A DNA stretch of 64,000 nucleotides, taken from NCBI GenBank assembly GCA_035305585.1, contig DATGOV010000038.1, forward strand, positions 3,744 through 67,743. The letters run 5' to 3'. Shown here piece by piece: positions 2,353 to 41,632 of the stretch. Position 1 is the stretch's first letter. Every line of letters starts with the position of its first letter. The stretch comes from Acidimicrobiia bacterium. GTDB taxonomy: Bacteria; Actinomycetota; Acidimicrobiia; Spongiisociales; ZC4RG35. The position numbers were made by a program, and so were the translations under genes. Under the pieces are notes generated by a model that was given only the letters and a program-made list of their open reading frames with translations, searched no databases and was not told where the DNA came from.

Positions 2353-2414
2353 CTCGTGCCTGTCGGGTCGGTGACGGTTTCTGATCGGAGCCCGGCCCCC
2401 GTACCATGGACTCC

Positions 2415-3167
2415 GTGAGTACTCCGCTGCTTCAGATCGAGAATCTCCACGCCGAAGCCGACGGCACCCCGATCCTCAAGGGCGTCGACTTGGCGGTGGA
2501 GAAGGGCGAGATCGTCGCGCTGATGGGCCCCAACGGCTCGGGCAAGTCGACACTCGCCAACGTGTTGATGGGTCACCCCTCCTACGAGGTGACCGACGGA
2601 CGGATCCTCTACAACGGTGAAGACATCACCGAGGCCGAGCCGACGGCCCGGGCGCAGATGGGGATGTTCCTGGCGTTCCAGTATCCCGAGGAGATCCCCG
2701 GCGTCTCGGTGGTCCAGTTCCTGCGCCAAGCCCTCTCCAACCGCACCGGCGTCGACTACACGGTGCTGGAACTGAGGTTGAAGGTCATGGAGGCGATGCG
2801 GGAGCTCGGCATGGAGTCGTCCTTCGCCGACCGGTACCTCAACGAGGGGTTCTCCGGGGGAGAGCGGAAGCGCAACGAGGTCCTGCAAATGGCGGTCCTC
2901 GAGCCGGAGATGGTGATCATGGACGAGACCGACTCGGGTCTCGACATCGATGCGCTCCGAATCGTCGCCGAAGGGGTCAACAAGCTGACGACCCCCGACC
3001 GAGGCTTCCTCGTCATCACCCATTACCAGCGGCTTCTCGACTACATCACGCCGGACACCGTGCACGTCTTCATGGAGGGCCGGATCGTCTCCACTGGAGG
3101 CGTGGAGCTCGCCCAGCAGCTCGAAGAGGAGGGTTACGACGCCTTCCGCCGGGCCGCGACGGCATGA
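2415..3167 (+). CDS. sufC: Fe-S cluster assembly ATPase SufC (copy 1)
   Basis: GPNGSGKST, LAFQYPEEIPGV, FSGGERKRNE, MDETDSGLDIDAL, ITHYQRLL; GTG 2415 lies 7 nt after a TACCAT -10 (the ORF-track ATG 2406 overlaps that -10). Confidence 0.95.
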   Translation: MSTPLLQIENLHAEADGTPILKGVDLAVEKGEIVALMGPNGSGKSTLANVLMGHPSYEVTDGRILYNGEDITEAEPTARAQMGMFLAFQYPEEIPGVSVVQFLRQALSNRTGVDYTVLELRLKVMEAMRELGMESSFADRYLNEGFSGGERKRNEVLQMAVLEPEMVIMDETDSGLDIDALRIVAEGVNKLTTPDRGFLVITHYQRLLDYITPDTVHVFMEGRIVSTGGVELAQQLEEEGYDAFRRAATA

Positions 3168-3199
3168 TTGAATGAGATAGCCGAAACCAGGTAGGCCGC

Positions 3200-4423
3200 A
3201 TGCCCCTCCTCGACACCTCCGCCATCCGGGCCGATTTCCCGGTGTTCGAGGATCGGAGCCTGCACTTTTTGGACTCGGCCGCCAGCTCCCAGAAGCCCCG
3301 CCAGGTGATCGAGACGATGGCCGAGTTCGCCGCCCACGGCTACGCCAACGTCAACCGGGGGGCCTATCGCCTGTCGGTGTCGGCCACCGAACGCTTCGAG
3401 GCCGCCCGCGACCGGGTGGCCGCCTTCTTGGGGGCGCATTCGAGGGATGAGATCGTCTTCGTGCGCGGCGCCACCACCGGGATCAACCTGCTCGCCCACG
3501 GCTGGGGCTCGCTGCGGCTCCGCCCCGACGACCGCATCGTCCTCACCGAGATGGAGCATCACGCCAATCTGGTGCCCTGGCAGATGCTGGCCCGCCGAAC
3601 CGGAGCCCGCCTCGAGTTCATCCCCCTGGGCGACGACTACCGACTCGACCTGAGCCACCTCGACCGCCTCATCGACCCCGACACGAAGATCGTGGCGGTC
3701 ACCGGGATGTCCAACGTCCTTGGAACGGTTCCCCAGCTCGACACGATCCTCGCCGCGGCTCGCTCTGTCGGAGCGTTCTCGATCGTCGACGGGGCCCAAT
3801 TGGTACCGCATCAGCCGGTCGACGTCTCCCGGCTCGGCGCCGATGCGCTCGTGTTCTCCGCGCACAAGATGTGCGGCCCGACCGGTATCGGCGTCCTGTG
3901 GGCGCGGCCGGAGCGCCTCGAGGAGTTGGATCCGATCGAATACGGCGGCGACATGATCAGCACCGTCACTCTCCGCACCGCCACGTGGGCACCGATCCCC
4001 CACAGATTCGAAGCAGGCACTCCCCCGATCATCGAAGCGATCGGCCTCGAGGCGGCCATCGACTACGTGGAGAAGATCGGGCGGGAGGCGATCGCCGACC
4101 ACGACGCCGAGCTCACCCGCTATGCACTCGACGCTCTCGCCGGTGTCCCGGAGCTGCGGATCCACGGCCCCGCCGACACCGAGTCCCGGGGCGGGGTGAT
4201 CAGCTTCACGATGGCCGACATCCATCCGCACGACCTGGCGACGATCCTCGACCAACACGGCGTCGCGGTGCGGGCGGGCCACCACTGCGCCAAGCCTCTG
4301 ATGGAGATCATGTCGGTGCCGGCCACCGCCCGGGCCTCCTTCTACCTCTACAACACGAAAGAGGACATAGATGCGCTCGTCGAGGCGTTGAGAGACGCAG
4401 GCGAGTTGTTCGGAGTGATCTGA
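3200..4423 (+). CDS. sufS: Cysteine desulfurase SufS
   Basis: LDSAASSQKP, EMEHHANLVPW, FSAHKM (PLP Lys), FEAGTP, RAGHHCAKPL catalytic Cys, RASFYLYNT. Confidence 0.95.
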   Translation: MPLLDTSAIRADFPVFEDRSLHFLDSAASSQKPRQVIETMAEFAAHGYANVNRGAYRLSVSATERFEAARDRVAAFLGAHSRDEIVFVRGATTGINLLAHGWGSLRLRPDDRIVLTEMEHHANLVPWQMLARRTGARLEFIPLGDDYRLDLSHLDRLIDPDTKIVAVTGMSNVLGTVPQLDTILAAARSVGAFSIVDGAQLVPHQPVDVSRLGADALVFSAHKMCGPTGIGVLWARPERLEELDPIEYGGDMISTVTLRTATWAPIPHRFEAGTPPIIEAIGLEAAIDYVEKIGREAIADHDAELTRYALDALAGVPELRIHGPADTESRGGVISFTMADIHPHDLATILDQHGVAVRAGHHCAKPLMEIMSVPATARASFYLYNTKEDIDALVEALRDAGELFGVI

Positions 4424-7796: not shown

Positions 7797-10631
7797 ATGA
7801 CACCGCCCACCGGGCCGGTCACTTTCCTGTTCACCGACGTCGAGGGGTCCACTCACCTGTGGGAAACCGACCCGGCGGGGATGGCGGAGAGCATCGAAGC
7901 CCACGACTCTCTGGTCCAGCGCGCCGTGGAAGCCAACGGCGGCCACATCTTCTCCACCGCCGGTGACGGTTTCGGAGTGGCCTTCTCCTCTCCTCTCGCC
8001 GCCGTGACCGCGGCGATCAGCGTGCAGTTGGGTCTGACCCGGTCGGCTTGGACGGGCCCCGCGCTGAGAGTGCGGATGGGAATCCACACTGGACACGCCA
8101 CAGAACGCGGCGGCGACTACTTCGGGCCTGCCGTCAACCGAGCCGCCCGGATCATGGCAGCCGGCAACGGCGGCCAGGTGCTGCTGTCGGCCGCCGCCGC
8201 CCACGCCGCCGGGCGAATCGACCCTGCGTACCTGGAAGACCACGGCACTCATCGTCTCAAAGACCTCGCCGACCCCGAACACATCTTCGAAGTCCGCCAC
8301 CCGGACCTGCCGACGGTGGCCGCGCCGTTGCGGACTGTCGGACCCAACCACAACCTTCCCACTTACCCCAGCTCGTTCATCGGACGGGAAGCCGAACTGG
8401 CCGAACTGAACAGTCTCCTCGACCACCACCGACTGGTCGTCCTCACCGGAGTGGGGGGAACCGGCAAGACGCGTCTGGCGGTGGAAGCCGCCCGCCGCCT
8501 CGCCGGCAGCCAGCCCGACGGAGCATGGCTGGTCGAACTGGCTCCCGTCGACGACCCGGCGATGATCCTGACGGCGGTCGGCTCGGTGTGGGGGTTGCGC
8601 CCCGGAGAACGGAGTCCCATCGAGGAAGTGATCCGGCGCTACCTCGCCGACAAGACGTCGCTGGTGGTCGTCGACAACTGTGAGCACCTCCTCGAGGGAT
8701 CGGTGCGGGCGATCCGTCATCTCCTCCAGGCCTCACCGGGGGTGAGGGTCCTAGCCACCTCCCGCGAGTCGCTGGGGATGGGCGAGATGGTGGTGCACGT
8801 CCCTTCCTTGGAACTGCCCGCCGACGACGATCCTGCTTCCGCCGAGTCCACGCGGCTCTTCGTCGAGCGGGCGCGGGCGGTCCGTCCCGAGTTCGCCCCC
8901 GAGCCGGAGGAGATGGCAGCCGTGGCACGGATCTGTCGTCGCATCGACGGTATCCCCCTGGGATTGGAGCTCGCCGCCGCCCGCTTGCGGAGCCTGTCCC
9001 CGACGGAGCTCGCCGACAGGCTGGAAGACTCGTTTCGCATCCTGTCGGGATCGGCGAAGGCCTCTCTTCCCCGTCAGCGGACTCTGGCCGCGACGATCGA
9101 CTGGTCGCACGATCTCCTGGCCGACCCCGAGAAGGCGGTCTTCTCCCGCCTGGCGGTGTTCGCCGGCGGGTTCGACCTGGAGGCGGCCGAAGCAGTCTGT
9201 TCGGGGGAGGAAATCGCTCCCCAGGATGTCTTCGACTTCCTCGACTCACTGGTCGACAAGTCGCTCGTGATGGCGACGCCGCTACGCGACGGCACCCGCT
9301 ATCGGCTGCTCGAGCCGGTCCGTCAGTACGCCCAGGAGAAGCTCGCCGCCTCGGGCGAGGCGGAAGCGGCGTACGCCGCCCACGCCCGCCACTACGCCGA
9401 GCGCGCCGCCCAGGCGGCGCCCCGGCTGCGCGGCCCCGAACAATTCGTGACCCGCCGCTCGCTCGACGTCGACCACGCCAACCTGCTGTCGGCGTTGCGG
9501 ACCCTGTCCGAGACCGGCGAGCACGAACGATTCCTCCGCATGGTCTTCGACTTGTTCCTGTACTGGATGCAGTCGGGAAAGCAGGTGGAGGCCATCGACA
9601 CTGCTCTGGCCGGGTTGGGCACCGCCCCACCCGACGTCGACCCGGAGGTCACGCTGCGGGCCTGGTGGACCACTGCATTCCTCGGAGCGGAGATCACCCG
9701 GCCGTCGTCGGTGGATCACGCCCGGCGAGGCCTCGACCTGGCCCGCCGCGTCGGAGACCCGAATCTGATCGGGCGGATGCAACTGATCCTGGGGGCGGCG
9801 ATCCGGCATTCGACGAGCGACCCGAGCTATTTGCAACACCTGGAGGAAGGGCGGCGCCTCCTCGCTGCCCACCCCGAGCCTCGGTGGTGGGAGGCGGAAT
9901 GGGAACAGGCGCTGATCGACTTCCTGCTCGGTGCATATCTGGCGTCTAGCGACGAGCGCCGGCGCCGACATCTCGAGTCGGCGATCGCCGCCTTCGAGGA
10001 GCTCGAGGACGAAGCGCTGCTCGTCGCCGCACTCACCGAGACCTTCGGTGAGAGCGACGACGACTGGGTGCGTTCCAACCTGTCGCGGGCGCTCGAGATC
10101 ACCGAGCGGATCGAACTCCCGTTCTGGCGGGGCCACGCCGCCGTCTTCATGGGGGCGCTCTTGTCCCTTCGCTACGCCAGCTACGCGGCTGCCGCACCCC
10201 ATCTGCGCGACTCGCTCGGCTACCTGCGGGACTGCGGCGACATCTCCTGCTGGGCAGCGTCCAATCGTGCCCTGGCCATCACCAACGCCCACCTCGGCCT
10301 AGTCGAGGAGGCGAGATCGAACCTCGAAGCAGTTCTGGACGTCCTCCCGTCCCTCCCGATGCCGGAGACGCACGTCCCGCGTCTCCTCGACACGGCGACG
10401 CGGGTACTGCTCGAGTCGGGCAAGGTCGGCAACTCCGCTCTGCTGCTGGGGCTGGCGGAAGCGACCGAAATGCCGGGGGAACTCGCCTTCGGACGGGTCG
10501 CCACTCACGAGGAGTTGCGAAAGGAGATCGCCACCGAGATCGGAGAGGAGCGAACCGACCAGTTGATCGCCGAGGGTGCCCGCCTCGGCCTCGACGACGC
10601 CTGGGATCTCATCCGCCGGTCGCTCGCCTGA
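7797..10631 (+). CDS. Class III nucleotide cyclase - STAND (AP/NB-ARC-like) ATPase - helical repeat protein
   Basis: TFLFTDVEGST, AGDGF, RMGIHTG, DYFGPAVNRAAR cyclase motifs; GVGGTGKT P-loop; VVDNCEHLL Walker B; GIPLGLELAA; no C-terminal LuxR HTH. Confidence 0.88.
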   Translation: MTPPTGPVTFLFTDVEGSTHLWETDPAGMAESIEAHDSLVQRAVEANGGHIFSTAGDGFGVAFSSPLAAVTAAISVQLGLTRSAWTGPALRVRMGIHTGHATERGGDYFGPAVNRAARIMAAGNGGQVLLSAAAAHAAGRIDPAYLEDHGTHRLKDLADPEHIFEVRHPDLPTVAAPLRTVGPNHNLPTYPSSFIGREAELAELNSLLDHHRLVVLTGVGGTGKTRLAVEAARRLAGSQPDGAWLVELAPVDDPAMILTAVGSVWGLRPGERSPIEEVIRRYLADKTSLVVVDNCEHLLEGSVRAIRHLLQASPGVRVLATSRESLGMGEMVVHVPSLELPADDDPASAESTRLFVERARAVRPEFAPEPEEMAAVARICRRIDGIPLGLELAAARLRSLSPTELADRLEDSFRILSGSAKASLPRQRTLAATIDWSHDLLADPEKAVFSRLAVFAGGFDLEAAEAVCSGEEIAPQDVFDFLDSLVDKSLVMATPLRDGTRYRLLEPVRQYAQEKLAASGEAEAAYAAHARHYAERAAQAAPRLRGPEQFVTRRSLDVDHANLLSALRTLSETGEHERFLRMVFDLFLYWMQSGKQVEAIDTALAGLGTAPPDVDPEVTLRAWWTTAFLGAEITRPSSVDHARRGLDLARRVGDPNLIGRMQLILGAAIRHSTSDPSYLQHLEEGRRLLAAHPEPRWWEAEWEQALIDFLLGAYLASSDERRRRHLESAIAAFEELEDEALLVAALTETFGESDDDWVRSNLSRALEITERIELPFWRGHAAVFMGALLSLRYASYAAAAPHLRDSLGYLRDCGDISCWAASNRALAITNAHLGLVEEARSNLEAVLDVLPSLPMPETHVPRLLDTATRVLLESGKVGNSALLLGLAEATEMPGELAFGRVATHEELRKEIATEIGEERTDQLIAEGARLGLDDAWDLIRRSLA

Positions 10632-11300: not shown

Positions 11301-12388
11301 AGGACCCGACGCTCCCGCTCGAAGAGCTCGTCGAGGCGACGGGTCAGATCCCATTCCCCGTCGGCGGCGCGGGCCGCCACCAGCAAGAGATCGACCAGAC
11401 CGTGGAAGTCGTCGACGCTGACCGCCTCGGGCATCGGCTCGGCGGGGGCTCCGCCGGCTTCCACCGCGTCCAAGTTGCCCATGTTGTGGTAGTTGGCCAG
11501 CGGAAGGCACAGGCCGGTGGTGGAGTACCCGTAGGCCGCGAACGCGGTCGCCTCACAAGACCCGCCGGCCATCAGCTTTCTCTGATGGATCCGGCCACTG
11601 TCCTTGGCGGCAGAGGACACGAGGTTGGTGAGCCGGTGGTCGAACACACTCGAGGCGTCCCCCACCCGAACCACGGGTCCGCCACCCACGGGCGAATCGG
11701 CGAATTCCCGGCTGCATTCGATCGACAGCACCCGGGCGTCATCGGGCAGGGTGTTGTCGCGGGCGGCGCCGATCGCTCCGACGAAGCCGAGCTCTTCGGC
11801 TCGGGTCACCAGCACGGCGAAGTGGCGCAGGGTCGGATCCGGGCGCGACCGGTCCAGGGCGGCGAGGGCCGCGGCCACTCCGGCGAGGTCGTCGCAGGCA
11901 TGAGCGTGGCACCTCCCTCCACGGACGCCGAGACGCTGGCGCCCGAACGACCACCTCCCGATGTCGCCTTCCCCGAGTCGCGCCCCGCGTGAAGCTTCGA
12001 CGGTTCCCTGGGAGGCCTCCGGGTCGTACTCGACGAGCGTGGCGGGATGGCGTCGGCCTCTGGCGTCGAAGAACTCGAGACGGGGCCGGCCCGCGAAGTA
12101 CTCGGGCCGCACTCCCCCTCGGAACTCGACGGCGGCGTAGCGCCCTTCGGACTCGGTCACGACGAAGGCGGGGTGGTCGGCGTGAGCGACAGCCACCACC
12201 GGGGCGGCCTTCTTTCGGCCCTTGCGTGTGATCAGGAGGTTGCCGTGGCGGTCGGTGCGCACGGAGAGATCGGCGCGTCGCGCCACCCATGCCCTTACCC
12301 AGTCGAGGACCCGCCATTCCTCGCCCGGTGCGGTGGGGATCGCGGTCAGCTGTTCGAGCCAGCGACGTTCGGAAGTGCGGTCGGCCAT
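11297..12388 (-). CDS. M20/M28/M42-family metallopeptidase or hydrolase
   Basis: Metal-ligand motifs AHADH, ACDDLAG, RAEELG, SIE, GGSCEA and YHN. Confidence 0.8.
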   Translation of the reverse strand: MADRTSERRWLEQLTAIPTAPGEEWRVLDWVRAWVARRADLSVRTDRHGNLLITRKGRKKAAPVVAVAHADHPAFVVTESEGRYAAVEFRGGVRPEYFAGRPRLEFFDARGRRHPATLVEYDPEASQGTVEASRGARLGEGDIGRWSFGRQRLGVRGGRCHAHACDDLAGVAAALAALDRSRPDPTLRHFAVLVTRAEELGFVGAIGAARDNTLPDDARVLSIECSREFADSPVGGGPVVRVGDASSVFDHRLTNLVSSAAKDSGRIHQRKLMAGGSCEATAFAAYGYSTTGLCLPLANYHNMGNLDAVEAGGAPAEPMPEAVSVDDFHGLVDLLLVAARAADGEWDLTRRLDELFERERRVL

Positions 12389-12434
12389 CGCCGCGAGATT
12401 CCCAGGTCTGCGCCGGAGGCGCAAAGACGGCGGG

Positions 12435-13244
12435 TCAGCGGTCGAACGGCGTGTCGGTGAAGAAGTCCGATGCCCGGGGGATCTCGGGCTCGGGCGCCTT
12501 GGGCGACTCGATACCGAGCCGGGATCGCACCGCCTCGTAGCCTCCCTGCTCGAGCTCCTCGGCGAGCTCGGGACCGCCGGACTCGACGATGCGGCCGTCG
12601 ATCATCACGTGGACCCGGTCGGGTGACAGGTAACGGAGGATGCGGGCGTAGTGGGTGATCATCACCACCGCCATGTCGGGGCTCCGCATCGCCTCGACCG
12701 CCTCTGCGATCTGTCGCACGGCGTCGATGTCGAGACCGGAGTCGATCTCGTCGAGGACCGCCACCTTGGGGCCGAGCACTGCCAATTGGAAGATCTCCGA
12801 CCGCTTCTTCTCGCCGCCCGACAGGTCGTCGTTGACTGAGCGGCCGAGGAAGTCGACCATCCCGAACCGCTCGGCAGCTTCTCCTATGCGCTTTTCGACC
12901 TCGTCGGTGTCGAGGCCGCGTTCCTCAGCGGCTTCCCGAACGAAGTCGCCGAGCCGGATTCCCGGCACCTCTGTCGGGTACTGGAACGCCTGGAGGAGCC
13001 CCAGCCTGCTGCGCTCGTCGACGTCCAGGTCGAGGATCTCGGTTCCGGCCAGCCGCGCCGAGCCTCGAACCTGATACTCGGGGTTGCCGGTGAGCACGTG
13101 GCTCAGCGTCGACTTCCCCGATCCGTTGGGGCCCATCACGACGTGGATCTCGCCGAAGGGAACGGCCAGGTCGACGCCGCGGAGGATCTCGGTCCCGTCC
13201 ACGGATGCTTGCAGGTTTTCGATCTCGAGGGCCAACGTCATCAC
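12435..13244 (-). CDS. sufC: Fe-S cluster assembly ATPase SufC (copy 2)
   Basis: GPNGSGKST, LQAFQYPTEVPG, LSGGEKKRSE, LDEIDSGLDIDA, ITHYARIL; last gene of sufD-Rieske-sufC. Confidence 0.92.
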   Translation of the reverse strand: MMTLALEIENLQASVDGTEILRGVDLAVPFGEIHVVMGPNGSGKSTLSHVLTGNPEYQVRGSARLAGTEILDLDVDERSRLGLLQAFQYPTEVPGIRLGDFVREAAEERGLDTDEVEKRIGEAAERFGMVDFLGRSVNDDLSGGEKKRSEIFQLAVLGPKVAVLDEIDSGLDIDAVRQIAEAVEAMRSPDMAVVMITHYARILRYLSPDRVHVMIDGRIVESGGPELAEELEQGGYEAVRSRLGIESPKAPEPEIPRASDFFTDTPFDR

Positions 13245-13555
13245 TCTTCTCCAATCCTCAAGAAGACCATCCCGTCTTCCACCTTCGCGTCGTAGACGGG
13301 GACGGGCTGGGTGGCGGGAAGGGCCTGAGGCTCACCGGTGCGGAGGTCGAAGGCGCTGCCGTGGCGGGGGCATTCCACCTCCGCCCCGAACACGTCACCT
13401 TCCGCCAGGGACGCCTCGGCGTGGCTGCAGCGGTCGCCGATGGCGTACACCTCTCCCTCGACCCGGAACAGGGCGATGCGGTGCTCGCCGATGTCGACCC
13501 TCAGCCCGCGGTCGTGTGGGATGCGCTTGGCTTCCACGACTCGGATCCAGCTCAC
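13241..13555 (-). CDS. Rieske-type (non-heme iron oxygenase) ferredoxin
   Basis: DRCSHAEASL and ECPRHGSAFDL [2Fe-2S] motifs; GTG start overlapping sufD stop. Confidence 0.92.
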   Translation of the reverse strand: MSWIRVVEAKRIPHDRGLRVDIGEHRIALFRVEGEVYAIGDRCSHAEASLAEGDVFGAEVECPRHGSAFDLRTGEPQALPATQPVPVYDAKVEDGMVFLRIGEE

Positions 13556-14859
13556 GACAGCCGGCCCTCCTCCTGCGCCTGGGTGAAGCGCCGGAACACG
13601 GCTTCTTCGATCGGCTCGGCGACCGTGTCGAACGGGAGGCGTTCGATCACTTCGGAGAAGAAGCCGCGGACGAGCATCCTCTCTGCCCGGGGACGGGATA
13701 TGCCCCGGGACTGCAGGTAGTAGAGGTGCTCCTGCTCGAGCGGACCGACCGACGAGCCGTGGCCGCACACGACGTCGTTGCAGAGGATCTCGAGGTTGGG
13801 CACCGAATGGGCCTTGGCGTGTTCGGAGAGGACGAGGTTGCGGTTGGTCTCGAACGCCGAAGTCCGGACGGCGTCCTTCTCGATGCGCAGCAGGCCCGTG
13901 AAGACCGACTGGGCGTGGTCTTCGACCGCGCCTTTCATGAAGACGTCGGAGGTGGTGTTGCGTCCGATGTGGTTGATCGTCATGCGATAGTCGAGCGTCT
14001 GGTGGTCTTCCCCGAAGTAGACGCCGACGACTTCGGCCGACGAGCCGGTCCCCTCCAGATCGACCGCCAGGTCGAGGCGGGCCACCTTCCCGCCCAGCCC
14101 GACTTCACCGACGCGGCCGGTGGCGTCGCGGCCCAGACGGAGGCGCTGGTGGACGAGCCCGGTGGTGGCCAGGTCCCAGCCTTGCACGGACATGAAACGC
14201 AGCTGGGCACCGTCCTCTGCGGTGAGGACGACATCCGGCACCGCCACTGCCTCGAGGCCCTCGGGGCTGCGGTAGACGACGATGAGGCCCGCCTGGGCAT
14301 TGGCGCCCACCAGGAACTCGACGTGCGGAAACGAGATGGTGCCCGGCTGCGTCGCCTGGATGTCGACGACGATCGGCGATTCCACCACCGCCCCGGGGCG
14401 AACCGCCACCACGGCGCCGTCGGTGGCGAACGCCAGGTGGGCCGCGGCGAACTTGTCCCGATCGACGGGAGCGGCAGTCTCGAGTCGATCCACTTCGGCC
14501 ATTCGCTTCACGCTCACGTCACCGACCTCGAGGGCGACGTCCACCACTCGGCCGTCGATGATCTGGATCCGGCCGGCGGCGTCGTCGAGCGCGGAGGTGA
14601 GGAACGGCCCGGCGGGCATCGCTGCCCCGCCGTCTGTGGTGAGGGCCAGCGAGTCGAGGTCGAAGTCGAGCTCGACGTAGCGCCACTCCTCCTCCGCCCC
14701 GGTGGGTACGTCCTGGGCTTGGAAAGCGGCGAAAGCTTCCGAAATCTGGGGCGCCCGCCAGTCGGGCTGGCCCCGTTGTATGGTCTCGACGGCAGTGTGA
14801 TCCAGCGCGGTCAAATCCAGTTCTCCGGGACGTGGGACAGAAATCCGATGGTATTGCAC
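13552..14859 (-). CDS. sufD: Fe-S cluster assembly protein SufD
   Basis: EEEWRY, HIGRNTTSDVFMKGAV, VFTGLLRI, AHSVPNLEILCNDVVCGHGSSVG, YYLQSRGI. Confidence 0.93.
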   Translation of the reverse strand: MQYHRISVPRPGELDLTALDHTAVETIQRGQPDWRAPQISEAFAAFQAQDVPTGAEEEWRYVELDFDLDSLALTTDGGAAMPAGPFLTSALDDAAGRIQIIDGRVVDVALEVGDVSVKRMAEVDRLETAAPVDRDKFAAAHLAFATDGAVVAVRPGAVVESPIVVDIQATQPGTISFPHVEFLVGANAQAGLIVVYRSPEGLEAVAVPDVVLTAEDGAQLRFMSVQGWDLATTGLVHQRLRLGRDATGRVGEVGLGGKVARLDLAVDLEGTGSSAEVVGVYFGEDHQTLDYRMTINHIGRNTTSDVFMKGAVEDHAQSVFTGLLRIEKDAVRTSAFETNRNLVLSEHAKAHSVPNLEILCNDVVCGHGSSVGPLEQEHLYYLQSRGISRPRAERMLVRGFFSEVIERLPFDTVAEPIEEAVFRRFTQAQEEGRLS

Positions 14860-14873
14860 TATCGCGATAGTGC
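14856..14873. promoter_or_regulatory. Perfect 18-bp palindrome overlapping sufD start, candidate suf operator
   Basis: GCACTATCGCGATAGTGC is its own reverse complement; near-identical copy at 20649-20664. Confidence 0.65.
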
Positions 14874-14884
14874 GAAATACGCCG

Positions 14885-15553
14885 TCAGGTCCCGGAGAGT
14901 TGCTTCGCCCTTCGCCACACGGCGTCGAACATCTCCTCCGTCAACCGTCCGGTGAACGTGTTCTGTTGGCTCGGGTGGTAGGAGCCGAGCAGCACCGGGC
15001 CTGGTTCGAGGTCGACTTCTGCGCCGTGACCGAATCGTGGCCGGGGACGGGGAACGGCCCATCCCCAGTCGGCGCCGCGACGCAGCACCTGGGTCCAGGC
15101 GAGCTGGCCCAACGTCACCACGACCCGGGGACGCATCGCGGCGACTTCCGGGATCAACCACGTGTCCACACAGGTGGCGATCTCGACAGTCGTCGGTTTG
15201 TTGTCCGGTGGGGCGCAGTGGCAGACGGCGGTGATCCGCACATCGATCAGGCCCAGGTCCGGGTCCTCGTCGTCGGGCGAAGTCGCCAGCCCCGCCCTGT
15301 GCAGCGCCCGGTACAACCAGTCGCCCGAACGGTCGCCGGTGAACATTCGCCCGGTGCGGTTCCCTCCGTGGGCGGCGGGGGCGAGTCCCACGACGAGGAT
15401 CGGAGCGTCCAGGGAACCGAACGACGGGACGGGCCGGCCCCAGTACTCCTCGCCGGCGAATGCGGCCCGCTTCTCAGTGGTGGCTTTCCGTTCTCGCCAC
15501 TCCACGAGACGAGGGCACAGGCGGCATTCCGTCAGCCCGGCATGGACCGTCAC
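14885..15553 (-). CDS. Uracil-DNA glycosylase family 5 (UdgB-like, Fe-S)
   Basis: CRLCPRLVEWRE, YWGRPVPSFG, GLAPAAHGGNRTGRMFTGDRSG, CAPPDNKPT, GSYHPSQQNTFTG. Confidence 0.9.
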   Translation of the reverse strand: MTVHAGLTECRLCPRLVEWRERKATTEKRAAFAGEEYWGRPVPSFGSLDAPILVVGLAPAAHGGNRTGRMFTGDRSGDWLYRALHRAGLATSPDDEDPDLGLIDVRITAVCHCAPPDNKPTTVEIATCVDTWLIPEVAAMRPRVVVTLGQLAWTQVLRRGADWGWAVPRPRPRFGHGAEVDLEPGPVLLGSYHPSQQNTFTGRLTEEMFDAVWRRAKQLSGT

Positions 15554-17004
15554 TCGCGCTCCAGGGCGGCGACGCTCACCTCGGACATGGCATTCCACAG
15601 CATCCAGCCCATGCCGTGGGACTCGGCGGCATCGATCTGTTGCCTCACCTGGGCTGCGTTGTAGCCGAAGTCCTGGAGCCACGGACGGATGACCACCTGT
15701 CCCGACGAGCGCGCCACCGCGTCGGCGAGTGCCCGATTCACCACCACGTCCGGCCGGGCGCTCGGATCTTCCAGCCCGTACCAGCCCGAGTCGTAGTGGC
15801 TGGGATAGATCATCGGGGACACCACGTCTCCGACGGAGGTGATGTCCTCCCAGCGCTGGCCGATACCGCCGTCGTCAGCCGACGTCGTGACGAACCCGAA
15901 CACGTCGACGCCCACCGCACACCCGAGCGGATGCAGCGCCTCGGTCGCCTCCCGGATGAAGCTCCGGATCGCTTCGGCGCGCACGTCGAGGGAGACGCCG
16001 GCGTCGAAGTGCACCGACTCGGGACGGACGTCGGGGAACCGCACGTAGTCGAACTGCACCTCGTCGAGGCCCATCGAGCAAGCCTCGGTCGCCAAGTCGA
16101 GGGCGTATGCCCGAGCTTCGGGATCGGTGGGATCGAGAAAGTATTGCCCATTGGAGGAGAACGGCGCCCCGGTCTGCTCATCCCACACCGCCATGTCGGG
16201 ATCTGCCTGGGCGGCCACCGGGTCCTGAAACGCCACGATCCGCCCGATCATGTAGAGGTCCTGCGCCTTGGCCGCCTCCACCACCTCGGCGAGGTCGTAA
16301 CGGGGAGCGTCGGCTCCCACCTGCGCCACGGTGGGAACCCTCGACCGGTAGAGCACCACCCCCTCCTCTGCCTTGAGGTCGATCATCAGTCCGTTCAGTT
16401 CCGTCGTGTCGGCCAGCTCCAGGAACTCTTCGAGGCGCTCCTCCACCGCCTCACCGGTCATGTGGACGGCCTTGACGATGATCGGCTCGACCTGGATCTG
16501 CTGCTCCCCCGGGCCGCCCGACCACTCGAAAGTCGCCTCCTGCCATGCCGGACGGGACACCCGCACGGTGCCCGGCTCGGCGCCCCGGACGATGAACCGG
16601 CCTTCCTCATCGGAATGTCCGACGCCGGCCCCCGCCTCGACGGTGACGTCGGCGACCGGCGTGCCGTCGGGATCTGCCACCCGTCCTCTGAGCATCAACG
16701 CCTTGAGCACGACGTCGAAGACACCGTCGTCGGGCGGGGTGATGGTGAAGGTCGAAGAGAAATGGCCGGGAGCCGACACCTGCACCAAGGCCCCCGAAGG
16801 AGCCACTTCGAGCAGTCCCGATTCCCCGGTCAGACCGAGCTGACGGCCTTCGGCGGCCACGACGGCGTTGGAGACGGGCGCGCCGACATCGTCCACGACG
16901 CGGAGGGTGAACGGGTCGGGCTCGTCCATGAACGACCACACCGCCCAGCTCAGCCAGCCGAGCGTGACCAAAACCAGCAGCCGGAACTGAGTCTTGCGGG
17001 ACAC
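15550..17004 (-). CDS. Membrane-anchored putative glycoside hydrolase (DUF4015-like TIM barrel) with N-terminal carboxypeptidase-regulatory-like beta domains
   Basis: N-terminal TM helix; LRGRVADPDGTPVADVTV...SDEEGRF repeats; IDLKAEEG, IGRIVAFQDP, DEVQFDYVRFP, SPMIYPSHY, IRPWLQDF, QQIDAA...GWMLWN. Confidence 0.8.
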   Translation of the reverse strand: MSRKTQFRLLVLVTLGWLSWAVWSFMDEPDPFTLRVVDDVGAPVSNAVVAAEGRQLGLTGESGLLEVAPSGALVQVSAPGHFSSTFTITPPDDGVFDVVLKALMLRGRVADPDGTPVADVTVEAGAGVGHSDEEGRFIVRGAEPGTVRVSRPAWQEATFEWSGGPGEQQIQVEPIIVKAVHMTGEAVEERLEEFLELADTTELNGLMIDLKAEEGVVLYRSRVPTVAQVGADAPRYDLAEVVEAAKAQDLYMIGRIVAFQDPVAAQADPDMAVWDEQTGAPFSSNGQYFLDPTDPEARAYALDLATEACSMGLDEVQFDYVRFPDVRPESVHFDAGVSLDVRAEAIRSFIREATEALHPLGCAVGVDVFGFVTTSADDGGIGQRWEDITSVGDVVSPMIYPSHYDSGWYGLEDPSARPDVVVNRALADAVARSSGQVVIRPWLQDFGYNAAQVRQQIDAAESHGMGWMLWNAMSEVSVAALERE

Positions 17005-17054
17005 GGGACGGAGACAGCCTACCGAGAACTGACGGTTGGGAGTCCGAGACGGAC

Positions 17055-17075
17055 TTCTCCACAGACTGTGGAAAA
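17055..17075. promoter_or_regulatory. Head-to-head pair of DnaA-box-like 9-mers
   Basis: TTCTCCACA-gac-TGTGGAAAA; each box has one mismatch to TT(A/G)TCCACA. Confidence 0.5.
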
Positions 17076-17134
17076 CCAATTGTCAGGGGGGGACGCATCT
17101 GATAGTTTCCAACCACGCAAGCAGTCGGGGAGCC

Positions 17135-18067
17135 ATGGCGGGAACGAAGCGGAAGCGTTCTACTACCGCCGACACAGTCGGCCTCTACCTCGACGATGTC
17201 GCCGATCACCGCCTCCTCACGGCCGAAGACGAGATCCGCCTCGCCCGCGCCATCGAGCAGGGCCGCCGCGCAGCTGCTCGCCTCGAACAGGAAGCGGACC
17301 TCGACGAAGTCGAGAGGCGTCGGCTCCGACGCCAAGTGACGGAGGGCGAGGAGGCGCGCGCCCTCTTCATCAGCTGCAACCTCCGCCTCGTCATCTCGAT
17401 CGCCAAGCGGTACACGGGCCGGGGCCTCGATCTGCTCGACCTGATCCAGGAAGGCAACCTGGGGCTGATCCGGGCGGTCGAGAAGTTCGACTGGCGGAAG
17501 GGCTTCAAGTTCTCCACCTACGCCACTTGGTGGATCCGTCAGGCCATCACCCGGGGGATCGGCAACGCCGGACGCACGATCCGCCTGCCGGTGCATCTGA
17601 TCGACGTGGTCCGGACCGTCTCCGACACCCGCCAGCTCCTCCACGACCGCCTCCAGCGGGCACCGACCATCGACGAGCTCGCCGAGGCTTCGGGGGTCGA
17701 CCGGGAGCGGGTGATGCTCGCCATCGAAGCTCCGAGCGACACGGTGTCACTCGACCGTCCGGTCGGCGACGATGGGGACGCCGAGTTGCAGGACTTCGTC
17801 GTCGACGACGCCGTCGACCCGTTCTCGCGGGCCGTGGAGTCGATCGCCCGGGAGCGGCTGATCAAAGCACTCGATCTGCTCGACGAAGAGGAGCGGCAGG
17901 TCCTGTGGCTCCGCTTCGGGCTCGACGGTTCCGAGCCGTGGACCCTGACGGACGTGGGAAAGCTCATGCACACCACCCGGGAGCGGGTCCGCCAGATAGA
18001 GGGGCGAGCGCTGGCGAAGTTGCGTCATCCCTCGTTCCGCTCGGAGCTGGTCACCACAGTCCTCTAG
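17135..18067 (+). CDS. RNA polymerase sigma-70 factor, group 2 (RpoD/SigB/HrdD-like)
   Basis: YLDDVADHRLLTAEDE region 1.2, NLRLVISIAKRY, DLIQEGNLGLIRAVEKFD..KGFKFSTYATWWIRQAI, TRERVRQIE..AL.KLR; no region 1.1. Confidence 0.93.
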   Translation: MAGTKRKRSTTADTVGLYLDDVADHRLLTAEDEIRLARAIEQGRRAAARLEQEADLDEVERRRLRRQVTEGEEARALFISCNLRLVISIAKRYTGRGLDLLDLIQEGNLGLIRAVEKFDWRKGFKFSTYATWWIRQAITRGIGNAGRTIRLPVHLIDVVRTVSDTRQLLHDRLQRAPTIDELAEASGVDRERVMLAIEAPSDTVSLDRPVGDDGDAELQDFVVDDAVDPFSRAVESIARERLIKALDLLDEEERQVLWLRFGLDGSEPWTLTDVGKLMHTTRERVRQIEGRALAKLRHPSFRSELVTTVL

Positions 18068-18117
18068 ACCCAGACGCGAGCCATTCCGGCCCGAAGGTAC
18101 CGGGATATCCTGTCGAC

Positions 18118-18387
18118 ATGTTCGCCAACCCCGCCTTCGCCGGGCTCGCCGTGATCGGTGCGGTGGGCGCCATCGCCGGTCTGGTGGGAGGGTTCCTCGC
18201 CGGTGCCCGCAGCCTGATCGGCACGGCATTGATGGGCGTGATCGGGGCGATCGCCGTCGCCGCCGTCGCCCGCATGGCAGGCGCTCCCCCGATCTACGGG
18301 GTGGGGATCGGGTTCTCCTATGTCTACGGCGCCGGCGGGGGGCTGTTGCTCTCCTACATCGTCGGCCGCAACGACCGGCCGGCCTGA
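18118..18387 (+). CDS. Small Gly/Ala-rich membrane protein (GlsB/YeaQ/YmgE-like)
   Basis: 89-aa hydrophobic tail of ORF 15460..18387, about 3 TM segments; leaderless geometry TATCCT + 6 nt + ATG. Confidence 0.65.
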   Translation: MFANPAFAGLAVIGAVGAIAGLVGGFLAGARSLIGTALMGVIGAIAVAAVARMAGAPPIYGVGIGFSYVYGAGGGLLLSYIVGRNDRPA

Positions 18388-18392
18388 GCAGC

Positions 18393-19073
18393 TCAGAGGT
18401 GCCTCGCCGCTTCGCGGCGGCTGAGCCCGGAGAGCTTCTCCCCTTCCCCGCTGAGGAAGCGGGCGACGGCGGCGGCATCGGTCTTCGAGTACTCGCGCAG
18501 AGCCCACCCGATCGCCTTCCGGATGAAGAACTCGGTCTCGTGGGCCTGTCGCCGACAGAAGTCGAAGAGCATTTCGGCGTCGGTGTGCTCCTTGTGCCGC
18601 AACTGGCTCAGGATGGCCGTGCGGCGCCGCCACATGTCGGCGTCGTCGATCCACGCTTCCATGACGGGCCGCATCGATGTCCGATCTTCCAGCAGCAGCG
18701 CCCCGACCAGGTTGGCGGCGACGTCGTCGACGAAGTCCCACCATGCCCCTTCGACGATCATCCGCTCGTACAGGTCGAGATGCGACCGCGCGGTGAACCG
18801 GCGGAACCGGCGGGCATAGGCGATCGCCAGGTACTTCTCCTCCCGGTGAGGCAGCTCCCACAGCGCCTCGATCCCCGACCGGTACTCGGCAGTGTTCGAC
18901 GGGACCATCTCGGCGGCGATATTGCGAATGATCTCGGCGCGACCGGGCTTCTGCACGCCGTAGAAAGGCATGGCGGTCTTCATGTACGCGGCCATCGCCG
19001 CCGCCTTGTCGGGGTCGGCTCGCTGAGCGAGCTCCGCAGCGACCAGCTCAGCGAGTCGCTCGCCGTAGCCCAC
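18393..19073 (-). CDS. DNA alkylation repair protein (AlkD-like)
   Basis: ADPDKAAAMAAYMKT..PFYGVQKP, REEKY, WWDFVDD, WRRRTAI..QL..K, EFFIRKAIGWALREYSKTD, LSRREA. Confidence 0.88.
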   Translation of the reverse strand: MGYGERLAELVAAELAQRADPDKAAAMAAYMKTAMPFYGVQKPGRAEIIRNIAAEMVPSNTAEYRSGIEALWELPHREEKYLAIAYARRFRRFTARSHLDLYERMIVEGAWWDFVDDVAANLVGALLLEDRTSMRPVMEAWIDDADMWRRRTAILSQLRHKEHTDAEMLFDFCRRQAHETEFFIRKAIGWALREYSKTDAAAVARFLSGEGEKLSGLSRREAARHL

Positions 19074-19102
19074 GCCGGTTCGAGTCGGGGAACGTCGTGA
19101 GG

Positions 19103-20515
19103 TCAGCCGATGGCGCCCGCTTCGGCCATGTTGAGCTCGATGAGGCGGTTCATCTCGACCGCGTACTCCATCGGCAGTTCCTTGACGATCGGCTCGATGA
19201 AGCCGGCCACGATCATCGAGGTGGCCTCGTCTTCGGTGAGACCCCGGCTCATCAGGTAGAAGAGCTGTTCCTCGCCGACCTTGGAGACGGTCGCTTCGTG
19301 GCCGATCTCGGCGTCGTTCTCCTCGATCTCCATGTAGGGATAGGTGTCGGAGCGGGAGTCCTCGTCGAGTATCAGGGCGTCGCAGCGGACCATGCTCTTG
19401 GCGTCCTCCGCTCCCGGCTCGACCCTGACCAGACCGCGGTACCCGGACCGGCCGCCACCCTTCGAGATCGACTTCGACACGATGGTGGAGGTGGTGTTGG
19501 GAGCGGCATGGACCATCTTGGCGCCGGCGTCCTGGTGCTGGCCCTCCCCGGCGAAGGCGATCGAGAGCACCTCGCCGTGAGCGCCCGGCTCCATCAGGTA
19601 CACGGCCGGGTACTTCATCGTCAGGCGGGAGCCCAGGTTGCCGTCGACCCACTCCATCGTGGCGTTGCGGTATGCCACCGCCCGCTTGGTCACCAGGTTG
19701 AACACGTTGTTCGACCAGTTCTGGATCGTCGTGTAGCGGCAGCGTCCGCCCGCCTTGACGACGATCTCGACCACGGCGGCGTGGAGGGAGTCGGTCGAGT
19801 AGATCGGGGCCGAGCAGCCTTCGACATAGTGGACGTAGGCGTCCTCGTCGACGATGATCAGCGTCCGCTCGAACTGGCCCATGTTCTCGGAGTTGATCCG
19901 GAAGTACGCCTGGAGCGGCTGCTCGACGCGGACCCCCGGCGGCACGTAGATGAACGAACCGCCCGACCACACGGCCGAGTTGAGTGCGGCGAACTTGTTG
20001 TCGTTGGGCGGTACGACCGTGCCGAAGTACTCACGCACGATGTCGGGGTGCTCCCGCACCGCCGTGTCCATGTCCATGAAGAGCACACCCAGCTTCTCGA
20101 GGTCCTCGCGGTTGCGGTGATAGACGACCTCGGACTCGTACTGGGCAGTCACACCGGCCAGGTACTTGCGCTCCGCCTCGGGAATCCCCAGCTTCTCGTA
20201 GGTCTGCTTGATCTCCTCGGGAACCATGTCCCAGGACTTGGCCTGCTCTTCGGTCGGCTTGACGTAGTAGTAGATGTCGTCGAAGTCGATCGTGTTCAGC
20301 AGACCACCGCCACCCCACTGGGGAATCGGCTTGCGCAGGAAGCGCTGATAGGCCTTGAGCCGGAAATCGAGCATCCACTCGGGCTCGCCCTTCATCTCCG
20401 ACATCTGCCGGATGATCTCTTCGTTCAGGCCTTTCTGCGGCTTGAAGAAATAGTCGTCCTCGGAGTCGCGCCATCCGAGCTTGTATGCACCGAGATCGAT
20501 ATCGACTGTGGCCAT
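19103..20515 (-). CDS. sufB: Fe-S cluster assembly protein SufB
   Basis: [75 protein letters not shown]. Confidence 0.97.
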
Positions 20516-20648
20516 CGGTCAAATCACCTCTCCGGAGAAACTCGAGGAAATGGTGCTGGACCCCGAAGGATCAGTGTCTCGCGGTTCTCCTCACCGCGAT
20601 CCTCACCACTGTGCTCTTCACACCACGTGGTTTTTTCAGCGGGTTTTT

Positions 20649-20673
20649 CACCATCCTGATAGTGGCAATTGTA
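20649..20673 (-). promoter_or_regulatory. sufB promoter: TACAAT -10 followed by palindromic candidate operator
   Basis: Minus strand reads TACAAT-tgc-CACTATCAGGATGGTG; the 16-mer matches the sufD palindrome at 13/16 positions (13/14 in the arms). Confidence 0.6.
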
Positions 20674-20710
20674 GGCGGGGTCGCCCCCTTCCCCAAGCGG
20701 CGACCACGCG

Positions 20711-25105
<4,395 letters not shown>

Positions 25106-41329: not shown

Positions 41330-41632
41330 TCAGGCGACTGCGTCCACCGCGACGACGCCGGGGACTCGGTCCTTGAGGATGCGCTCGATGCCCGCCTTCA
41401 AGGTCATCATCGAGAGCGGACAGCCGCCACAGGCGCCCACCATCTGCAGGGTGACGACGCCGTCCTCGACGCCCTGGAGGACGATGTCACCACCGTCCAT
41501 CTGGATGGCAGGACGGATGTAGTCGAGCGTCGACTCCAGGAGCTGCAGGTCGACTTCGCCATCCGCGTCCTGGGTCGAAGTGATGTGCACCGGCGTCGTT
41601 TCTTGGGTGGGGGTTTCAGCCATGTCGGTCAT
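41330..41632 (-). CDS. NifU-family (Nfu) Fe-S carrier
   Basis: IRPAIQMDGGDI, GACGGCPLSMMTLKAGIERIL (CxxC). Confidence 0.9.
   Translation of the reverse strand: MTDMAETPTQETTPVHITSTQDADGEVDLQLLESTLDYIRPAIQMDGGDIVLQGVEDGVVTLQMVGACGGCPLSMMTLKAGIERILKDRVPGVVAVDAVA

Follow-up and report, generated by a model that had tools for sequence, protein, structure and literature searches.

A predicted palindromic operator shared by the separated sufD and sufB genes of an Acidimicrobiia bacterium, and a SufR-like COG2345 protein as its likeliest binder

Among the regulators of iron-sulfur (Fe-S) cluster assembly, the closest described counterparts of the system presented here are the SufR proteins (Mycobacterium tuberculosis Rv1460, and those of Streptomyces and Synechocystis), which are [4Fe-4S] repressors of the suf operon and belong to COG2345. 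In M. tuberculosis SufR the cluster is held by three Cys residues and Glu195; helix alpha-3 carries an RRH motif, a hallmark of the protein and of COG2345, as is the GRP AT-hook of the wing, which enters the A/T tracts flanking the palindrome, and a core palindrome with A/T-tract flanks is the layout of the sites of both SufR and ArnR (bioRxiv 10.64898/2025.12.26.696629). Published SufR sites read CAAC-N6-GTTG and ACACT-N5-TGTGA, and M. tuberculosis SufR is reported to have a low core specificity, tolerating changes in the core. As for other proteins, RirA of the rhizobia and IscR of the Enterobacteria are each a single cluster-sensing repressor that couples Fe-S assembly to iron acquisition, and Fur represses sufABCDSE in E. 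coli. Here, a stretch of 64,000 nucleotides from an Acidimicrobiia bacterium was analysed (GCA_035305585.1, contig DATGOV010000038.1, positions 3,744 to 67,743; the whole stretch is called the window below), in which sufD and sufB are separated genes, each associated with a palindrome of the same type. The two palindromes are read as operators of one transcription factor, most likely a 236-amino-acid, SufR-like protein of COG2345; a probability of roughly 0.7 is assigned to this reading.

Regarding the two sites, positions 14856-14873 hold a perfect 18-bp palindrome, GCACTATCGCGATAGTGC, near sufD, and positions 20649-20664 hold a second one, CACCATCCTGATAGTG, at sufB; the two agree at 13 of 14 arm positions. 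Checked against the window sequence, both were found where the original prediction had placed them, and so was the TACAAT hexamer located 3 bp before the sufB core, on the minus strand at 20673-20668. The window contains no further copy, as had also been claimed: the pattern CACYATCNNGATAGTG matched these two places only and had 0 matches in 100 dinucleotide-preserving shuffles of the window, while allowing up to two mismatches added a single, GC-rich and unrelated match at 41438. With the A/T flanks on either side included, the predicted sufD-promoter operator spans 14852..14877 (no strand assigned; 16-bp core CACTATCGCGATAGTG at 14857-14872; 34-38 bits) and the predicted sufB-promoter operator spans 20644..20669 (no strand assigned; core at 20649-20664; 31-35 bits). 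The proposal that the two sites are copies of one dimeric-repressor operator, which would couple the separated promoters, is supported.

The assembly to which the window belongs (G000), a metagenome-assembled genome, has 1.8 Mb in 55 contigs, a G+C content of 68% and a completeness of about 70%; the names of near-identical proteins assign it to the Acidimicrobiia, and DNA nearly identical to it was found in compost, manure, fertilizer and soil metagenomes. Allowing up to two mismatches to CACTATCNNGATAGTG, the whole assembly has three sites only, and a position-weight scan detected five sites above 10 bits, whereas the reversed genome gave none above 5 bits; the genome-wide scan that the original prediction had called for thus found a motif that is not frequent at random positions. 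Besides the sufD and sufB promoters, the five comprise a site on contig C34 (35-36 bits), in the spacer between a DtxR/MntR-like gene and a gene for an ATP-binding cassette (ABC) solute-binding protein of the SBP_bac_6/8/11 type, whose family suggests specificity for iron; a site on contig C27 (28-30 bits), upstream of a gene for a FecE-like ABC ATPase; and a weaker one on contig C15 (15-20 bits), between the gene of the 236-residue regulator and mrp/apbC.

As for the relatives, a pattern search of 60 related genomes was followed by tblastn of the flanks. The first pattern, CACYATYNNRATRGTG, matched GC-flanked coding sequences of the form CACCATC..GATGGTG and missed variants such as those of G030 and G033; because of both faults, a wider pattern that includes the A/T flanks was adopted. 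The GC-flanked matches, which adjoin no regulon gene and look like chance matches, were discarded. In 41 genomes the wider pattern had 128 matches, versus 2 for the reversed pattern, and the full site across the class is a 26-bp palindrome, ATTTnCACTAY-N4-RTAGTGnAAAT, with its two A/T tracts about 22 bp apart. A/T-flanked copies occur before orthologous genes for sufB, sufD, the ABC binding protein, sufE/rhodanese, mrp/iscA and the FTR1 iron permease. Conservation in related genomes, on which the original prediction had made itself depend, is evident at the suf genes: more than 20 class genomes keep the site before orthologous sufB, nine keep it before sufD (including G001, G003, G012, G015, G017, G035, G038 and G039) and seven, the present genome not among them, before sufC1-sufS; G091 and G120, which represent two further families of the class, have it before sufB as well. 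Regarding the genes served, 40 further sites were viewed in flank detail, and the counts that follow, each of sites before the gene named, come from these: eight lie at sufB, six at sufD, eight at sufC1-sufS (one of them a contig-end fragment of sufC only), three at mrp/iscA, two at regulator/mrp, four at ABC binding proteins, three at FTR1, two at sufE/rhodanese, one at a siderophore-type binding protein together with a siderophore-interacting protein and one at imelysin; the remaining two have no clear Fe-S or iron gene adjoining them. Fifteen genomes of other Actinomycetota classes had no site before sufB or sufR, and one outlier, G084, has it before a rhodanese gene upstream of sufB.

The site, then, joins the scattered Fe-S assembly and iron-uptake genes of the Acidimicrobiia into one predicted regulon. 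The co-regulation of two genes first proposed holds as far as the operator shared by sufD and sufB is concerned; its limitation to these two does not, since Fe-S carriers, sufE, iron uptake and the DtxR-like regulator are also covered. Similarly, it had been claimed that sufC1-sufS-sufU lacks the site and that sulfur delivery is consequently under separate control. The absence is confirmed for this genome, in which no site was found upstream of these genes, and the searches in the genus found none at sufC1 either; it does not extend to the class, as the sufC1 site is present in seven further genomes, which makes its absence a peculiarity of the genus.

The candidate regulator is encoded outside the window, on contig C15 (4511-5221), divergently from mrp/apbC. 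Its N-terminus is an ArsR-type winged helix (Pfam HTH_20, E = 8e-13, and HTH_5), and comparison with NCBIfam placed it in the ArsR/SmtB subfamily with a weak SufR_cyano match; a PDB search with the three COG2345 paralogues of the genome returned generic ArsR and FadR helix matches only. Invariant in 16 orthologues are the recognition helix HPNVARHHLD, with its ARHH, the wing AT-hook GAGRPAK, with its GRP, and the four residues C181, C195, D198 and C227. These four align with the [4Fe-4S] ligand positions of M. tuberculosis SufR; the canonical proteins differ in two details, having Glu as the fourth residue and a spacing of X12 where this protein has Asp and X13. Of the three paralogues, the C15 protein is the best match to the sufB-adjacent regulators of other Actinomycetota, with which it aligns at every motif (RGRPAK, RRH, C-X12-C-X2-E ... 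C), and in many motif-bearing genomes it is the sole COG2345 paralogue. The other two, considered as binders, were rejected or disfavoured on their phyletic pattern; they are encoded on contig C3 (5147-5809) and contig C27 (about 7872-8555), with Asn and His as fourth ligands. The C3 gene is preceded by an A/T-armed inverted repeat of its own, TCTAAAG-N14-CTTTAGA, and a DUF59/SufT-like gene comes after the one on C27.

Regulator and site are associated both at the regulator's own gene and across genomes. Among 80 Acidimicrobiia loci that contain an orthologue (41-94% identity), almost all have the gene arranged divergently to mrp/apbC, and in 65% the 40-130 bp between regulator and mrp include a degenerate motif copy that scores higher than the 95th percentile of control windows; the copy lies about 54 bp before the regulator start codon, overlaps a TAGAAG/TAGAAT box and, by its place in the regulator's own spacer, would fit autoregulation. 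Regarding whole genomes, motif matches occur in 39 of the 41 class genomes with an orthologue (1-8 matches each), and the seven same-order genomes that lack any COG2345 match are all motif-less (Fisher p = 4.9e-7, with no correction for phylogeny); both states occur within family f9 and within family f12. Five genomes without the regulator, in which SufB is 84-88% identical, had no site in the 160-800 bp upstream of it, the best scores being -0.5 to -20 bits. Of the two protein types named at the outset, SufR and Rrf2, the SufR type is preferred because the COG2345 protein matches the phyletic pattern of the motif and has a site of its own.

The Rrf2 type, meaning that an Fe-S sensor of the IscR or RirA kind binds the site, fared differently and is considered very unlikely. 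The regulons of RirA and IscR comprise Fe-S assembly and iron uptake, like the regulon described here, and Rrf2 genes are found in many genomes of the class; however, these genes are not associated with the motif, as no full Rrf2 match was obtained in seven motif-bearing genomes of at least 90% completeness, whereas five motif-less ones did give such a match (p = 0.38). In this assembly, only 70% complete, there was no Rrf2 match at the Pfam cut-off. The COG2345 protein resembles RirA and IscR in that one cluster-sensing repressor is predicted to couple Fe-S assembly with iron acquisition, and it differs from them in protein family and in operator.

Another regulator that shares the phyletic pattern of the COG2345 protein, for instance a Fur-family paralogue or an unrecognised factor, might also own the site; this is unlikely, if less so than the involvement of Rrf2. 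A co-inherited gene would be compatible with the co-occurrence test, this genome encodes a Fur-family protein, as do 46 of 46 class genomes tested, and in E. coli iron-uptake and suf genes are classic targets of Fur, which are released together at low iron as is predicted for the genes described here. Nevertheless, Fur-family genes are present regardless of the motif, being equally found in seven motif-less genomes; no Fur gene was seen adjoining a site, whereas a site is found, throughout the class, in the promoter of the COG2345 gene itself. Finally, a 7-2-7 core with distal A/T tracts is unlike the 7-1-7 or 19-bp Fur box, and Fur senses Fe2+ directly, unlike the regulator proposed here.

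The gene beside the C34 site raises a further alternative, that the site is bound by the DtxR/MntR-like regulator encoded there. In G000, G001, G003, G007, G020, G023 and G039, the dtxR-like gene and the gene of the iron-type ABC binding protein do diverge from a spacer that holds the site, but at least 16 motif-bearing genomes are without the DtxR-like orthologue, which three motif-less genomes have (p = 1.0). The same dtxR-like/ABC spacers also contain a second palindrome, GTTAGG-N4-CCTAAC; it is similar to DtxR/IdeR half-sites and a better candidate for the box of the DtxR-like protein. Binding of the Fe-S operator by this protein is accordingly judged highly improbable; given the separate box and the lack of association, the simpler reading is that the dtxR-like gene is itself one of the targets. 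At a distance of 15-40 bp from the Fe-S operator, the second palindrome was seen both in the dtxR-like/ABC spacer and at several promoters of iron-uptake genes, at positions 35895-35910 of contig C34 of G000 (L028, 1464-1479), at L165, L168 and L174, and at about 11303 on C27; in this genome the exact TTAGG-N4-CCTAA match is unique. Judging from its sequence, it is probably the box of a DtxR/MntR-like regulator and, if so, its position beside the Fe-S operator would mean dual control of iron import. The DtxR-like protein itself (contig C34, 35197-35853) has Glu at the positions of DtxR Met10 and Cys102 in an alignment made by eye, a pattern typical of manganese-sensing members of the MntR type; it falls below both the DtxR and the MntR cut-offs of NCBIfam.

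As for the promoters, both operators overlap the predicted ones, and across the class the site always falls on the -10 region. A TANNNT box (TACAAT, TAGGAT, TATAAT or TAAGAT) stands directly before the sufB operator, at the same offset, in most promoters of sufB orthologues; in the window, the probable -10 box, recognised by this conserved offset, is the TACAAT at 20668..20673 (minus strand), and a weak -35-like element, TTGGGG, lies 17 nt upstream of it (20691..20696, minus strand; similar CTTGGG in relatives). The 3' end of the TACAAT box is the upstream A/T flank of the operator, and consequently the sufB site covers the expected transcription start. At sufD and sufC1 the arrangement is reversed: TACCAT, TACGAT or TAGGAT follows the operator directly, at the same offset in relatives, and the operator therefore fills the spacer between the -35 and -10 boxes. 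In the window, the probable -10 box of sufD is TACCAT (14848..14853, minus strand), which comes immediately after the operator and shares bases with its A/T flank; the putative -35-like TTCGCA (14871..14876, minus strand), a weak candidate, is 17 nt upstream of TACCAT and overlaps the upstream edge of the operator. A sigma-70 consensus scan (9 of 12 positions) and a terminator scan found no match at either site; the promoter boxes are therefore predictions from the conserved TANNNT positions. In the sufC1 promoters L183 (G035), L166 (G036) and L201 (G015), the GTG start is 6-9 nt past the predicted -10 box, a distance that suggests leaderless sufC1-sufS mRNAs in those relatives.

The position of the sufD site relative to the coding sequence differs from that given in the original prediction, in which the palindrome covered the start codon. 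The open frame has its first possible start, a GTG, at 14859-14857, but sufD probably does not begin there: SufD orthologues of other genera align by tblastn from residue 16 or 19 of the GTG-started frame, and a TTG at 14814-14812 is preceded by the ribosome-binding site GGAGAA at 14826-14821 (14812..14826 in all, minus strand). The true start of sufD is thus probably TTG 14814, and the palindrome would overlie the promoter rather than the true start codon. Alternatively, the sufD palindrome, which follows a uracil-DNA-glycosylase (UDG) family gene, might act as an RNA hairpin, in a terminator or within an mRNA, its likeness to the sufB site being a coincidence; it begins 12 nt past the stop of that gene, and a 7-bp stem could form. 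Against this, folding was no better than that of shuffles (z = -1.3 at sufD and +0.5 at sufB), there is no U tract and no match in the terminator scan, and the arms are conserved as sequence at unrelated promoters, where departures break the pairing and do not compensate each other; the hairpin is therefore exceedingly improbable.

The reading of the sites as operators of the COG2345 protein can now be set against SufR itself. The likenesses are the ArsR-type winged helix, the R-x-H of the recognition helix, the GRP AT-hook and the three Cys residues with an acidic fourth ligand; the site is likewise a palindrome with A/T tracts that overlaps the promoter, and its predicted targets include suf genes and the regulator's own gene. 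Unlike SufR, the protein has Asp as the fourth ligand and a hook that reads AGRP and not RGRP, its gene is paired with mrp/apbC and not with suf, and its regulon extends over 5-8 dispersed promoters, with iron import and a second metal regulator among the targets. The system therefore appears to work like SufR but is no plain member of that group. With ArnR of Corynebacterium glutamicum, a COG2345 protein that is not a SufR, it has in common the family and an AT-hook that would read the A/T tracts around a short core; the targets of ArnR, however, are nitrate respiration and hmp and not, as is proposed here, Fe-S or iron genes.

Several points weigh against the proposed operator and binder. 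The protein is only about 31% identical to the sufB-adjacent SufR proteins, and its gene is not adjacent to suf genes; in the four class genomes examined, no such regulator gene was found upstream of sufB, unlike in other Actinomycetota. The core CACTAY-N4-RTAGTG is unlike the two published SufR sites, and it is strongly conserved, in contrast to the low core specificity of M. tuberculosis SufR. The site in the regulator's own promoter is weak in this genome (15-20 bits) and falls below the control threshold in about a third of the loci. Two genomes that have the regulator, G026 and G059, lack a match to the pattern: G059 has a 22-bit variant site at sufB and G026 a degenerate site only. Since the co-occurrence is uncorrected for phylogeny, another co-inherited gene could explain the association. 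Finally, the only sequencing run labelled TRANSCRIPTOMIC, the public run X13, covered window positions 12000-21500 evenly, at about 28x on genes and intergenic DNA, as DNA reads would.

Regarding the mechanism, the geometry of the site, the make-up of the regulon and the phyletic link come from the analysis itself, and what follows on DNA binding, on the direction of control and on the cluster as signal is inferred by analogy with SufR. In this model the CACTAY and RTAGTG half-sites would be contacted by the recognition helices of a dimer of the SufR-like protein, whose AT-hooks would enter the two A/T tracts. When loaded with its cluster, the dimer would occupy the promoters and exclude RNA polymerase; with the sufB site over the transcription start and the sufD site between the -35 and -10 boxes, a bound dimer would block the polymerase at both. 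When iron is short or under oxidative stress, clusters would remain unbuilt or be destroyed, and the regulator, having lost its own, would leave the DNA; its release would raise together sufB, sufD-Rieske-sufC2, the Fe-S carriers, sufE, the iron importers, the DtxR-like regulator and the regulator's own gene.

As for the genes around the two sites, gltB, sufB, the genes for DNA-alkylation-repair, DUF4015 and UDG-family proteins, sufD, the Rieske gene and a second sufC are all on the minus strand. sufB (19103..20515; Pfam SUFBD_core, E = 2.5e-89) is a lone gene downstream of gltB (20711-25105), and the order gltB-sufB is kept throughout the family. The UDG-family gene (14885..15682; Pfam UDG) has its stop 12 bp before the palindrome; its place directly upstream of sufD recurs in several genera (G001, G003, G012, G038 and G039), although sufD has its own predicted promoter and operator. 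The sufD open frame (13552..14859; Pfam PF01458 SUFBD_core, E = 6.8e-68), the real start of which is probably at 14814, is followed by a Rieske [2Fe-2S] gene (open frame 13241-13768, true start uncertain; Pfam Rieske, E = 3.4e-20) and by sufC2 (12435-13244; ABC_tran), which is 50% identical to sufC1; these two genes (12435..13768) probably share the operon of sufD. sufC1-sufS (2406..4423, plus strand) lies distant from sufB and sufD. Just upstream of sufC1, a GC-rich hairpin, GGCCCGC-GGA-GCGGGCC, is directly repeated at 2300-2319 and 2332-2353, with T-rich bases after each copy; the pair looks like tandem terminators and occupies the position in which relatives have the sufC1 operator. Finally, in six genomes the SufB match is in two parts (residues 1-296 and 295-470) with an open frame of 1.2-1.7 kb between them, in frames of about 890-1270 residues (G044, C10 152327-154939; G056, C73 47103-49733; G092, G113, G121 and G128). 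As read from these sequences, the split is the signature of an intein within SufB; two of these genomes belong to the set without regulator and motif.

In conclusion, there is about an even chance that, in the Acidimicrobiia, a diverged COG2345 protein, coupled to Mrp/ApbC instead of suf, acts as the master sensor of Fe-S status; with a base-specific 16-bp core and AT-hook flanks, it would govern a split SUF system, carriers, sulfur donors, iron importers and a DtxR-like iron/manganese regulator, a role that in Proteobacteria belongs to the unrelated Rrf2 proteins RirA and IscR. The literature search returned no paper linking SufR with Acidimicrobiia, and in the literature searched the control of iron uptake is unreported for characterised SufR proteins; the finding suggests that sensors of the SufR type can take over this function. 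Moreover, the recently defined SufR-like (COG2345) family gains a member with a new, well-defined operator, comprising about 130 predicted sites in 39 genomes, whose natural variation lets one ask how the helix and the AT-hook divide the recognition of DNA. As for the organisms, the predicted regulon shows how cells coordinate a fragmented SUF system, and it provides a testable regulatory map for a class that is poorly studied, largely uncultured and common in samples of compost, manure and soil.

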